Positions 25,696-62,123 of a DNA stretch of 64,000 nucleotides are shown here, piece after piece. The position numbers and the translations under genes were made by a program. Location of the stretch: assembly GCA_942493265.1 (NCBI GenBank), contig OW818688.1:1218994-1282993 (forward strand), written 5' to 3'. Under the pieces are notes generated by a model. The model searched no databases and was not told where the DNA came from. It worked only from the letters and a program-made list of their open reading frames with translations. The stretch's first letter is position 1, and every line of letters starts with the position of its first letter. This DNA is from an uncultured Bacteroidota bacterium. Lineage in GTDB: Bacteria > Bacteroidota > Bacteroidia > Bacteroidales > UBA12481.

Positions 25696-25726
25696 TAGCA
25701 AATTGGCAGGTATGGATACTAACTTG
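25696..25726 (-). promoter_or_regulatory. Conserved 31-bp operon-leader motif, copy 1 (upstream of the GH115 operon)
   Basis: Minus-sense CAAGTTAGTAtccatacctgcCAATTTGCTA, 84 nt upstream of the ATG at 25612. It overlaps the last codons and stop of the MFS gene. Confidence 0.6.
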
Positions 25727-27026
25727 ACCAGGTGGAGATCAGTGCCTTTGTATGCGGTGTGGTGTTTGCGCATGGCTTGATTTCCCGGATAAAAAGTTTC
25801 AGGATTATCCAGTTGACCAGGTAAACGGAAGATGCCACGAAGAAGATTAAAAAATAGCTTCCGGTACTTTCAAGAATCAGTCCGATAAAGGAAGCCGACA
25901 GGGCGCCTCCCGCGGCACCGGCAAATCCGCTGAGTCCAACCATGGTTCCAACAGCCTGTTTCGGATAAATATCTGAAACAATGGTGAAAATATTGGATGC
26001 CCACCCCTGGTGGCCGGCAGCGGCCAATGCAATCAGAATCACGGCAATCCAAAGATTATGCGTTTGAGATACCAGCATCACCGGCAGGATAATCAATGCA
26101 CAGATCAGGATGCTTCTTTTCCGGGCAAAATCAATGGATTTCCCTGCAGTAATAAACCGTGAGGAAAGCCAGCCTCCGCCAATGCCGCCAATGCTGGAAA
26201 CAGAATAAATGACTATGATCGGAATTACGGCCTCTTTCATATCAATACCGTGTGCCTTATTCAGGTAATCAGGAATCCAGAACAGGAAAAACCACCATAC
26301 CCAATCAGAAATGAAACGGGTGGAACAGATTGCCCGGGTCTGTTTCAACCTGAACAGGTCAATCCATCTTATTTTATTTTTATTATCTGTATCTAACTCA
26401 TCCTGATTGATATACAGCAGCTCCTCTTTTGATATTTCCGGATGTTTTTCGGGAACCTGATACCAGGCTATCCAAAAAATCAGCCAGATAAAACCAAGCG
26501 AGCCAGTTATGATAAAGGCCCATTTCCAGCCCAGGCTCAGGGAAATCGCGGTTACAATCAGGGGAGCAATAATGGCCCCGATGGTGGATCCGGAGTTGAA
26601 AAGACCGGTGGCAAAAGCCCGTTCTTTTTTGGGAAACCATTCAGCCACGCTTTTAACGGCTGCCGGGAAATTGGCGGATTCACCGAGTCCGAGGGTAAAC
26701 CGGGCCACCGCAAAACCAACCACACCGCGTGCTGCGGCATGAGCCATCCCTGCAAGGCTCCAAACGACAATAGCCCACAAGTACCCGATGCGGGTACCGA
26801 ACTTATCCAAAAACCGGCCCGTCGAGATCAGTCCTATGGCATACGCAACCTGAAAAGCCGTTACGATGTACCCGTAATCGGCCTCACTCCAGGCCAGTTC
26901 TTCAGAAATGAAGGGTTTCAGCAATCCGATTACCTGCCGGTCGATGTAATTGATGGTGGTGGCAAAAAAGAGCAGGGACAGAATCCTCCAGCGATAATTT
27001 TGGGTATTGGTAACCAGTTTATTCAT
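25719..27026 (-). CDS. MFS transporter, hexuronate (ExuT/ACS)-like
   Basis: 435 aa, 12 TM helices. YRWRILSLLFFATTINYIDRQVIGLLKPFI is typical of ACS-family hexuronate/sugar-acid transporters. Confidence 0.8.
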   Translation of the reverse strand: MNKLVTNTQNYRWRILSLLFFATTINYIDRQVIGLLKPFISEELAWSEADYGYIVTAFQVAYAIGLISTGRFLDKFGTRIGYLWAIVVWSLAGMAHAAARGVVGFAVARFTLGLGESANFPAAVKSVAEWFPKKERAFATGLFNSGSTIGAIIAPLIVTAISLSLGWKWAFIITGSLGFIWLIFWIAWYQVPEKHPEISKEELLYINQDELDTDNKNKIRWIDLFRLKQTRAICSTRFISDWVWWFFLFWIPDYLNKAHGIDMKEAVIPIIVIYSVSSIGGIGGGWLSSRFITAGKSIDFARKRSILICALIILPVMLVSQTHNLWIAVILIALAAAGHQGWASNIFTIVSDIYPKQAVGTMVGLSGFAGAAGGALSASFIGLILESTGSYFLIFFVASSVYLVNWIILKLFIREIKPCANTTPHTKALISTWSS

Positions 27027-27064
27027 TGCGGGATTTGGTCTGTCAGGATTCTGAAATTGGTTAA

Positions 27065-60500: not shown

Positions 60501-61997
60501 CGCCCAGGCACTCTCCTGCGGCACCGCCGACGTTTTCATGAAATTGGCCAGGGAAACGATATGGAACCCGAAGTCGCCGGCGTCAAAGCGCGAGCGCCAA
60601 TCTGTGATCATGGTTTGTAGCAATGCGTTATATTGATAGGCCCGGCTCGCGTTCGCCTCGCCCTGATACCAGATGGCCCCCTTGATGGCAAAGGGGATCA
60701 GCGGTGCGATCATTCCGTTGTACAGCACCGAGCTGATATTCGGATTACCGATGAGCGGGGCTCCGGTGACGGCGCGGGTGGCTGTTTCCTGAACACGCCA
60801 CGCACCGGCCAGGGAATTTGCAGAGGATTCGTCTCCTGATGGATAGACCTTCATCTGTTCCGCGGGACCGAAAAATCCGCCACCTCCGGAATTAACCACT
60901 CTCATGGCAATCACGTTACTGCCTGTTTTCAGAACCGCAGCCGGAACTTTGTACAGGCGGGGCTCATCGTAGTAATCCGTCCGTCCTACGGCGATTCCGT
61001 TCACCCAGGTTACATCGCAGTCGCCGATGGTGCCGAAGCTGAGAACGAGTTCTTTGCCGGTCCATGCTGCGGGTACTTCAAATTCACGCTGCACCCATAC
61101 AATGCCCTCGTAACCAGGCAGTCCGCATCCATTCCAGTTTGCGGGCATTTCAGCAGTTTCCCAGGCTGTTACATCGGTTTCAGGTTTGAACCAAGCCTTT
61201 GAGGTACCGGGATCGTTCTTCTGATACCACTTGTCCATAACAACACCAAGTTTGTCGGTTCCCGGTGTGGCCGCCACCTCTTTCACCTGCTCCATAGCGG
61301 CTGCGAAATCACCTGACGAAGCCATGGCTTCGCCACTGGTCCATGCCTCAATGACCGTACCACCCCAGCACGTCTCAATGAGGCCGATGGGAACGTCGAG
61401 ATCGCGGTGCAGCTCCCGGCCGAAGAAATAACCTGCAGCTGAAAATCCGCCCCAGGGGCCATCGGTAAGAGTCGTCGGACTGCAGGGCTGCCAGGCACAA
61501 TCCAGGGTAGATTCGGGTGTATAGGCTATCTTCTTGGGTACGCTTAACAGCCGAATCCGGGGAAATTTGGCGGCCGCTATTTCATCGGGTACCTGGCACG
61601 CTCCGATGCCCATTTCCATGTTCGACTGGCCGGAACATATCCAGACATCCCCGACAAGAATATCGGAGATTTTGGCTTTTTGATTGCTGATTGAGGATTG
61701 AACTTTCAATACACGGCCTTTTCCGGATGCTGCCATGCGATCGAGGTATGCCATCCATTTGCCATCGGTGGAGGCAATGGCACTCTTCTCCTGGCCGGCA
61801 AAACTAACCGTGACCGTTGCTCCAGGCTCCGTCCAGCCCCATACAGGAACTTTGGCATCGCGCTGAATAACAGCGTGATCGGCGAAAAGCGGATGGAGCA
61901 GCGGTTTGGAATCAACCCCGGAGCCACAAGCCATGAGGTTAAAGGCAAAGAGCAGGAGGACTCCGAGAGTCACGGAAGAAAAGTATTTATAGTTCAT
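57507..61997 (-). CDS. 1496-aa lipoprotein fusion: SASA-type sialate/glycan O-acetylesterase + amidohydrolase-2-like TIM barrel + Ig-like domain + M24 (Xaa-Pro peptidase/creatinase-like) domain
   Basis: Lipobox FNLMAC. aa ~30-655: GDVWICSGQSNMEMG, GAIWYQGEANAS, NLYNKENLPAVPFRTDEW (SASA esterase). aa ~670-965: VDMHTHMD...LIALHTGDP...FIFAHG...LLFGTDVF (amidohydrolase). aa ~985-1078: Ig-like. aa ~1095-1496: IKSPAEIVKMR...GDFLVVDAGPSWEDYDTDIS...THSVGLATHD...VRVENTVLIT (pita-bread fold). Confidence 0.8.
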   Translation of the reverse strand: MNYKYFSSVTLGVLLLFAFNLMACGSGVDSKPLLHPLFADHAVIQRDAKVPVWGWTEPGATVTVSFAGQEKSAIASTDGKWMAYLDRMAASGKGRVLKVQSSISNQKAKISDILVGDVWICSGQSNMEMGIGACQVPDEIAAAKFPRIRLLSVPKKIAYTPESTLDCAWQPCSPTTLTDGPWGGFSAAGYFFGRELHRDLDVPIGLIETCWGGTVIEAWTSGEAMASSGDFAAAMEQVKEVAATPGTDKLGVVMDKWYQKNDPGTSKAWFKPETDVTAWETAEMPANWNGCGLPGYEGIVWVQREFEVPAAWTGKELVLSFGTIGDCDVTWVNGIAVGRTDYYDEPRLYKVPAAVLKTGSNVIAMRVVNSGGGGFFGPAEQMKVYPSGDESSANSLAGAWRVQETATRAVTGAPLIGNPNISSVLYNGMIAPLIPFAIKGAIWYQGEANASRAYQYNALLQTMITDWRSRFDAGDFGFHIVSLANFMKTSAVPQESAWAELREAQAMAVKELPDCGIAMAIDIGDAADIHPKNKKEVGRRLALSALAITYGKDIEWSGPWYKSMEIQGKVIRLSFDHAGGGLMAKGDKLAGFAIAGANRKFVWADAVIDGTTILVSSPSVPEPVAVRYGWDSNPVCNLYNKENLPAVPFRTDEWPGITKPTDQQVIYPPSAVPIVDMHTHMDAKTQYAKAVEAMDQWGGTISITLAGIFWVKDNNDSAASPASVKQIPYNDMVYVKEKLDNRILFVPGAFTIPSAGIWWSVDDIKTFKKQGFVGLKLWPHGAILTSAIPGIHEQLDEAGRQGMPLIALHTGDPGTKDENSPAFPKFEDDAVAVAGQHPQTTFIFAHGLFMLENDEGLDKLAAIFDKYPNIFVDLAYTHNMRQTAKYTVRKARDFYIRYRDRLLFGTDVFAADAGANRFLNERKILETNQVTSGLSKGPLLEGFNLPDSVLNPIYYWNAARLIPRVREVLEARGFRIGYELGSFKFDRLPPDVTVNKLTIDGRAADITGTLGSVTTSLVVEIAGKVYTGVDNMNGTWKLPGDRIAGLPQGTYDVKVTATNSIGLVRSDTSTNELTITDLKSNEIKRQPAPEPARPLGFEKSEYSARRQKLMDQIEDGFAIIRNSSGNKPNLDFLYLCGVKVPNAILLVDGKKRESHLFYTTSENYLKGEGLSPEIATNPEQATGIEFWHKADQFGPVLSARIAGGGLVYTPFTAEEFNNDVAPRSEWDGRLNREQQFVKVLKDKYLGLEVRDCSQLIWDLRMIKSPAEIVKMRIAGKIGAEAMNAVMKAARPGMYEYELSSLFEYECMRKGCHEMAFDVIISSAENHKYLHYAQHNRLLTDGDFLVVDAGPSWEDYDTDISISFPVSGKFTPRQKEIYEACKAVSLACLEFYKPGITGFEVGAKVKELLISKGYQMETDAFSRLSFFKEGGITHSVGLATHDCGGRDVPKNVPLRAGMVFACDVFATFPDENLGVRVENTVLITENGCENLTAGILR

Positions 61998-62092
61998 TCC
62001 TGTGATTAATAAGTGGTAGTCATTTTTATAAAATCCATTTGTGCAGACACAATATCGGGTTCAATGTAGTACAGATTACGGATATCCACATG

Positions 62093-62123
62093 TATCAAAT
62101 TGATAGGATTGAGTACTAATTTG
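62093..62123 (-). promoter_or_regulatory. Conserved 31-bp operon-leader motif, copy 5 (upstream of the 1496-aa fusion gene)
   Basis: Minus-sense CAAATTAGTActcaatcctatCAATTTGATA, 96 nt upstream of the ATG at 61997. Confidence 0.55.

Follow-up and report, generated by a model that had tools for sequence, protein, structure and literature searches.

A tandem-repeat element with a promoter-like third box upstream of glycan-degradation operons in an uncultured Bacteroidales bacterium

Five copies of the element and the operons they precede

The window analysed here, a 64-kb stretch of contig OW818688.1 from an uncultured Bacteroidales bacterium, carries on its minus strand five copies (c1–c5) of a conserved element of ~67 bp, each upstream of a glycan-degradation transcription unit. 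Read in gene sense, a copy consists of two related 10-mers, box1 and box2 (CAAnTTnnTA), which together with the spacer between them form a 31-nt direct repeat, and of a third box, box3, further downstream. The repeat had been noted in a preliminary description of this DNA, and all five copies were confirmed at the same coordinates with both a degenerate pattern and a weight matrix. With the 27-nt degenerate pattern, five sites were found at 0 mismatches and no other at ≤3 mismatches on either strand of the 64 kb, against 0.02 expected from shuffles. With the 31-nt weight matrix, c1–c5 scored 42.7–46.0 bits and the next-best of the 127,940 positions scored 10.2 bits. A degenerate sixth candidate, proposed to precede the GH95 gene at 49022..49054 (minus strand), is not a copy, as the best matrix score there is about -20 bits.

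Each of the five copies is intergenic (intergenic DNA amounts to 8.9% of the window; c1 overlaps the end of a major facilitator superfamily (MFS) transporter gene by 8 nt) and each faces the gene downstream. A uniform distribution, including copies inside genes and on both strands, had been named beforehand as evidence against a regulatory role, and this is not what was found. By our own count, the motif is present at five of nine glycan-related transcription units in the window and at none of the ~15 other units. The earlier proposal of a shared cis-regulatory element of a glycan-degradation regulon is supported.

The contents of the downstream units, all on the minus strand, were assigned by Pfam and are largely those first described. 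Copy c1 (25660..25726; box1 25717-25726, box2 25696-25705, box3 25660-25671, TAACTTTATACC) overlaps the MFS stop codon; the ATG of a GH115 gene follows 48 nt on and opens an operon (18414..25612) that also encodes a xylose-isomerase-like TIM barrel, a GFO/IDH/MocA oxidoreductase and a protein with a type IX secretion system (T9SS) tail. Copy c2 (31071..31137; box1 31128-31137, box2 31107-31116, box3 31071-31082, TATCTTTATCCC) lies 17 nt before the ATG of a sulfatase gene, in an operon (25719..31054) continuing with a GH95-like protein and the MFS transporter. Copy c3 (41055..41121; box1 41112-41121, box2 41091-41100, box3 41055-41066, TACCTTTAACCC) is followed after 54 nt by the ATG of a 75-aa truncated open reading frame (ORF; 40774-41001) with a twin-arginine (Tat) signal, which shares its unit (38886..41001) with a heparinase II/III-like protein (38886-40772). 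Copy c4 (55670..55736; box1 55727-55736, box2 55706-55715, box3 55670-55681, TACCTTGAGCCC) ends only 5 nt before an ATG, and its operon (50651..55664) encodes an F5/8-type-C protein with a T9SS tail, a sulfatase and a GH29 fucosidase; the first of these had been called an M6 protease, of which only the F5/8-type-C and T9SS-tail parts are visible by Pfam. Copy c5 (62057..62123; box1 62114-62123, box2 62093-62102, box3 62057-62068, TACATTGAACCC) stands 60 nt before the ATG of a gene (57507..61997) for a 1496-aa protein in which SASA esterase, GH2-N, amidohydrolase and M24 peptidase domains are fused. Measured from the 31-nt repeat, the distance to the first ATG is 42–96 nt, as originally given.

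The ORF at 40774-41001 (minus strand), previously labelled a relic, agrees with that label: this truncated gene, with c3 on one side and the heparinase II/III-like gene on the other, joins a twin-arginine signal (SRRRFIQTSGSLAFG) to an apparent C-terminal fragment. The first ~73% of the 1496-aa fusion (SASA plus amidohydrolase) is common to orthologs that are 75-87% identical, and its C-terminal end is an AMP_N/M24 peptidase here and consists of GH123-like domains in the orthologs. In one related locus (L030) the AMP_N/M24 peptidase is a separate gene, four genes downstream, and an IS110 transposase gene (56076-57071, minus strand) adjoins the fusion gene in the window. The differing C-terminus, the separate peptidase and the adjoining transposase suggest a deletion or fusion rearrangement. 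At the far end of the window, positions 1-2000 have a G+C content of 58% (40-55% elsewhere) and hold the end of a minus-strand ORF (699+ aa) extending beyond the window.

Copies in related assemblies

A scan of 185,579 species genomes with the motif returned 20 matches, about the number expected by chance. Three of the 20, in two 'uncultured Porphyromonadaceae' metagenome-assembled genomes, carry the whole element with box3 at the right offset, and the other 17 are without box3. A hidden Markov model of the element separated the two kinds, with true copies aligning over positions 1–69 and chance matches only over 2–27. The single match in a scan of metagenome contigs was a chance one. Further copies came to light in the genomic neighbourhoods of genes homologous to those for the fusion protein and the GH95-like protein. 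There are six additional copies of the same geometry, designated by locus: one each in L006/L010, L014 (the same contig as L032), L022 and L023, and two in L034/L035; L036 holds a weak ortholog. Together with the five in the window, these make 11 distinct copies. Motif-bearing assemblies include GCA_964512915.1, GCA_964355105.1, JGI 3300028028 (contig Ga0265292_1000158), JGI 3300076802 and ERZ4201063, and the SRR29366200 organism is a relative without the motif.

Every copy from the relatives precedes a sulfatase, GH95-like–GH115, Sortilin/BNR, oxidoreductase or T9SS-cargo operon. The L022 copy is upstream of a sulfatase-rhamnosidase fusion, the L023 copy upstream of a sulfatase, and the L032 copy upstream of genes for Sortilin/BNR, GH95-like, sulfatase, GH115, GH32 and M24 proteins. 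One of the two L034/L035 copies is upstream of GH95-like–GH115 and the other, a weaker variant, upstream of T9SS-cargo genes; the L036 copy is an orthologous weak variant. Several equally related loci (L026-L031, L033 and L037) are without the motif. The weak variant, at L034:18247-18316 (plus strand) and L036:2329-2400 (plus strand), reads CAAGATrAT-N12-CAAnnnGAT, followed by TATCTTCCC at equal offset, and is kept in two genomes before paired T9SS-cargo genes. It might be bound with low affinity, or serve a paralogous regulator.

At the 31 variable positions of the element, mean identity among the 11 distinct copies is 0.31. With so little identity outside the boxes, the copies are held together by selection on the three boxes and not by recent duplication. 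Subfamilies can be recognized nonetheless (c4/L022/L023; c5/L006; c3/L032/L034a; c1/c2).

Membership of the regulon shifts between relatives. GH95-like and GH115 genes are under the motif in three genomes (here, L032 and L034), and c4 and its L022 homolog head different genes. The fusion gene is motif-bearing only here: phylogenetic footprinting, which had been suggested as a check, showed the motif to be absent upstream of its orthologs in L022, L026 and L027, and in L023-L025, L030 and L031 the ortholog lies inside a longer operon. The motif-less orthologs share another upstream block (L022:6920-7115, L026:9873-10000 and L027:9900-10000; …AATyCTAyACAC.T.TG..AAA.GGATTGA.C…GTAAATTG…), patchily alignable with c5 and its leader, which may be a different operator or an ancestral promoter remodelled into c5.

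Proposed promoter architecture and candidate regulators

In 11/11 distinct copies box1, box2 and box3 stand in gapless register, and the two 10-mers are exactly 21 nt apart; the related 10-mers and a conserved CC(T) in their spacer were already part of the preliminary description, which holds. Between the 10-mers, CA is invariant at positions 13-14 and yCT is conserved at 17-19. The distal unit accordingly reads AAnTTAGTA followed ~10 nt on by yCA..yCT; conservation of the second sub-box is weak in the proximal unit (CA at positions 34-35 in about half of the copies). Judged from the aligned copies, the repeating unit is at least 14 nt long and appears to be bipartite. Box3, TAyCTT(T/G)AnCCC, occupies positions 56-67 and follows box2 at exactly 24 nt in all copies, while its distance to the ATG varies from 5 to ~60 nt. 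Because the spacing to box2 is fixed and that to the ATG is not, box3 is tied to the repeat and not to the start codon.

Promoters of Bacteroidota have the consensus -33 TTTG and -7 TAnnTTTG (PMC7366714), and the TAnnTT of the latter is invariant in box3. Motif-less genes in the window carry TACCTTTA, TATATTGA or TATCTTTG 20-30 nt before their ATG, the same -7 variants as box3. A -33 TTTG was sought at element positions 30-37 and was present in none of the 11 copies; box2 has a TTTG of its own, 27 nt from box3. The earlier statement that the motif does not fit the canonical -33/-7 promoter is true of the 31-mer, and it overlooked the -7-like box3 just downstream. We infer that box3 is a variant, weak Bacteroidota -7 box. 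A sigma-70-type consensus scan around c1 and c2 gave matches no more frequent than in shuffles. Folding of the five elements as RNA gave unrelated structures, with z-scores of -1.0 to +0.8 versus shuffles, and an Rfam search of the window found no family. In c1 there is a second AACTTTATACC(C) at 25621-25631 (minus strand), 39 nt past box3, which may reflect duplication of the -7 region or mark an additional start site.

The element is probably an activator-dependent promoter bound by a dimeric AraC-type regulator. Predicted motifs of hybrid two-component systems (HTCS) in Bacteroides are direct repeats with a mean of 21 bp between sites (PMC3878776, Ravcheev et al. 2013), the Bacteroides AraC regulator RhaR has a 21-bp periodicity as well (PMC3870299), and the HTCS BT4124 gives a ~40-bp footprint with half-sites 21-22 bp apart and two recognition helices in adjacent major grooves (PMC13292587). 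Geometry was measured from the promoter alignments of the last study (nine Bacteroides promoters, most of their HTCS sites predicted): published sites are 31-36 nt long, with 19-25 nt from site end and 50-61 nt from site start to TAnnTTTG, and the corresponding values here are 31 nt, 24 nt and 55 nt, the latter two measured to the variant -7 box with its presumed role. The 31+24 layout recurs in BT4174. Since it accounts for the 21-nt period, the apparently bipartite half-sites and the placement of the site start before the -7 box, an AraC-type regulator gives the best fit. The conserved CA and yCT between the 10-mers favour a monomer with two recognition helices over a protein with a 9-bp site. 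Tandem binding by an AraC-type regulator had been put forward before, together with a winged-helix alternative for which the 10-11-bp period is missing; an OmpR/PhoB winged-helix site was rejected, as sub-boxes separated by one helical turn do not resemble each other.

Each copy would then be a complete activator-dependent promoter of ~67 bp with a class-II-type layout. Two tandem half-sites, each bipartite (CAAnTTAGTA plus yCA..yCT one turn on), would lie 21 bp apart on the same helix face; with a presumed start ~4-5 nt after box3, their centres would fall near -62 and -41, and the promoter-proximal half-site would abut or overlap the would-be -33 position. When a glycan signal is present, a dimeric regulator with AraC-type double helix-turn-helix domains would occupy both half-sites, replace the missing -33 contact and recruit RNA polymerase with the housekeeping sigma. 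The regulator would most likely be an HTCS encoded elsewhere in the genome, or otherwise an unlinked one-component AraC protein. The five operons would be switched on together, bringing up GH115, sulfatases, GH95-like, GH29, the heparinase-like lyase, the acetylesterase fusion, the MFS importer and T9SS-secreted proteins. The transcription start and the family of the binding protein are presumed from this layout, and activation rather than repression is argued from the missing -33 element.

Several observations weigh against an AraC-type activator. No HTCS, AraC, extracytoplasmic function (ECF) sigma or anti-sigma gene was found by Pfam in the 64-kb window, which bears out the earlier remark that SusCD-linked HTCS or ECF regulators are lacking locally, and no HTCS or AraC gene lies next to the copies in L006, L010, L014/L032, L022, L023 or L036; the related loci amount to ~350 kb in all. 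Neither a TonB-dependent receptor (SusC) nor a SusD domain was found among window ORFs ≥150 aa or among the genes listed for the related loci. The HTCS genes of Bacteroides usually adjoin the loci they control, together with SusC/D. The sole AraC gene near any copy (L034:16085-16945, minus strand; 286 aa, HTH_18) lies between the two motif-bearing units of L034/L035 and was set aside as the cognate regulator: it sits between Fic fragments, diverges from a DUF2807 gene and is not itself preceded by the motif, and on these grounds it is probably an unrelated insertion. The last two bases of box3 are TA or GA and not TG, and its role as a -7 box is presumed. Such a role also implies a leader of only ~5 nt at c4, and 5' untranslated regions <10 nt make up only 3.7% in B. 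thetaiotaomicron (PMC7366714). Most of the Bacteroides HTCS sites compared are predictions, and the footprinted HTCS, BT4124, behaved as a repressor (PMC13292587).

Two other kinds of gene were considered as the regulator. A sensor kinase gene at 2914-6237 (plus strand) encodes 1107 aa with dCache, multiple PAS, GAF, HisKA and HATPase domains; it has no receiver or DNA-binding domain and no motif nearby, and was not linked to the element. It adjoins a rhamnosidase-like gene with a TACCTTTA promoter and no repeat motif. AAA_14/DUF4143 ATPase genes lie at 16873-18258 (minus strand), 49142-50437 (plus strand) and 62165-63601 (plus strand), two of them with canonical TATCTTTG -7 boxes. Copy c5 is 42 bp from one such gene and the L022 copy overlaps the 3' end of another (L022:15590-16927); these ATPases were dismissed as regulators, being absent from the other motif loci.

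That the repeat, lying before an otherwise ordinary weak promoter, serves a regulator of some other family, or repression, is rather unlikely. Repressors of most families (LacI, GntR, TetR) recognise palindromes, in contrast to the direct repeat found here, which also lacks the 10-11-bp sequence repeat of OmpR/PhoB or DeoR sites, and the missing -33 element points to activation. This explanation draws on the fact that no regulator was identified and that the footprinted HTCS, with the same site layout, represses. SusR-like proteins use direct repeats too, but their motifs are 67-77 bp apart (PMC3878776).

Next in order of likelihood, and itself unlikely, comes the main rival to an AraC-type protein: a LytTR response regulator acting by the same promoter logic, a dimer of which would occupy two direct repeats of ~9-10 bp, 11-12 bp apart, immediately before the core promoter. 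LytTR sites have their 9-bp direct repeats 12 bp (11-13) apart, which gives a 21-bp period, and lie directly before the -35 (PMC2714321; PMC6193735), and AgrA-activated promoters have suboptimal core spacing (PMC4227749). The 21-nt period matches, an (A/C)GTTA core is common to the AgrA site ACAGTTAAG, the PlnC/D site TACGTTAAT and box1 CAAGTTAGT of c1-c3, L006 and L034, and LytTR domains are over-represented in Flavobacteriaceae. However, the G of GTT is absent from half of the box1 copies and from every box2, the repeats here are at least 10 bp long, and their spacer is conserved (CA at 13-14, yCT at 17-19), which is not reported of LytTR spacers. LytTR regulators, often paired with a LytS-type kinase, are encoded beside or close to their targets and often regulate themselves. 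No LytTR domain or LytS-type kinase is encoded among the annotated genes of the window or the related loci, we found no report of LytTR control of Bacteroidota glycan loci, and the quantitative match to HTCS geometry has no LytTR counterpart in the phylum.

An alternative sigma promoter, for instance of ECF type, as first proposed, is very unlikely. Box1 and box2 would be its -35-like and -10-like elements, and box3 would be transcribed in the 5' leader. Such an arrangement would agree with the failure of the 31-mer to fit the -33/-7 consensus and, with a start ~10 nt after box2, would give every leader at least 35 nt, avoiding the ~5-nt leader of c4; many Bacteroidota ECF sigmas are, moreover, linked to glycan loci (PMC3878776). 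Against it, box1 and box2 repeat each other in direct orientation with a 21-bp period, a relation not expected of -35/-10 elements, and the gap of ~11-14 nt between their conserved cores is too short for a promoter of the sigma-70 family. The repeat boxes lie 24-27 nt from the next conserved element, box3, which resembles the ordinary -7 boxes of other window genes and is fixed to box2, not to the ATG. The five leaders share neither an RNA fold nor an Rfam match, and the window encodes neither an ECF sigma nor an anti-sigma factor.

Least probable of all is repeated or mobile DNA (a miniature element or recombination scar) without a regulatory role, or a structured RNA leader: some subfamilies are alike even at variable positions (c4/L022 0.71, c4/L023 0.61, c5/L006 0.61), c4 and its L022 homolog precede different genes and IS110 transposase and AAA_14 genes adjoin c4 and c5, but identity at variable positions is low on average, conservation is confined to three boxes in fixed register, there are no terminal inverted repeats, the copies are never inside genes or wrongly oriented and always lie upstream of glycan-degradation genes, and a leader RNA has neither a fold signal nor an Rfam match.

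Significance and comparison with known systems

If confirmed, an activator-dependent promoter of this kind would offer a handle on the co-regulation of enzymes for sulfated, fucose-, rhamnose- and glucuronate-containing glycans in an uncultured Bacteroidales lineage, and would do so for operons that lack the hallmarks of textbook polysaccharide utilisation loci, SusC/D genes and neighbouring regulators. The weight matrix could be used to list the regulon in complete genomes, to predict enzymes that share a substrate and to fish out the regulator. The element also shows, independently and outside the genus, the geometry predicted for Bacteroides HTCS sites, a 31-nt tandem repeat ~24 nt before a -7 box, and reveals no new regulatory principle. 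Its unusual feature is the control of dispersed, SusC/D-less, T9SS-linked operons without an adjacent regulator. A further step, for which we see only a modest chance, would be a lineage-specific regulon of a kind undescribed in Bacteroidota, in which SusC/D-independent operons for T9SS-secreted proteins, scattered over the chromosome, answer to one unlinked master regulator (an orphan HTCS or a protein of another family) by way of a portable promoter cassette of ~85 bp; exchange of the cassette between operons would rewire membership between close relatives. Portability is suggested by the c4 cassette, which stands before different genes in the window and in L022, and by the fusion gene, which has the motif here while its 75-87% identical orthologs do not.

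Several known systems resemble the element in part. The housekeeping sigma-ABfr promoter is matched by box3 in having TAnnTT at a fixed position, but it ends in TTTA or TTGA, deviating by one or two bases, a -33 TTTG is missing, and an extra CCC comes after the box. Like the LytTR sites of AgrA, PlnC/D, ComE and HdrR, the element places a pair of direct repeats with a 21-bp period just before a suboptimal core promoter; unlike them, it has a conserved spacer, repeats of 10 bp plus an extension, and no LytTR gene nearby. Sites of AraC/XylS-family activators (AraC I1-I2, XylS Om) comprise two direct-repeat half-sites of ~17 bp with a 21-bp periodicity, and in class II activation the proximal one overlaps with the -35 region of a promoter that is weak by itself. 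The element differs from these classical sites in belonging to another phylum and another sigma (-33/-7 type), in having no adjacent AraC gene, and in that no distal looping site was seen.

The closest counterparts are the HTCS sites of Bacteroides (HTCS_Rgu-1/-2, HTCS_Ara-1, HTCS_Ogl-1/-2), with which the element shares a tandem direct repeat with a 21-nt period, the occurrence of several sites per regulon and a position upstream of glycan-degradation operons. As a lead only, the half-site AATTAGTGA of BT4136, an O-glycan HTCS target, occurs twice, 21 nt apart, and resembles AAnTTAGTA. The differences are that the half-site sequence here is new, that no HTCS gene or SusC/D pair lies by the regulated operons, that the regulon consists of T9SS-secreted enzymes plus an MFS importer, and that TAnnTT(T/G)A plus a conserved CCC takes the place of TAnnTTTG at the presumed -7 box. 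The element is probably a regulon-specific tandem operator joined to a weak Bacteroidota promoter, a known kind of layout with a new half-site sequence.

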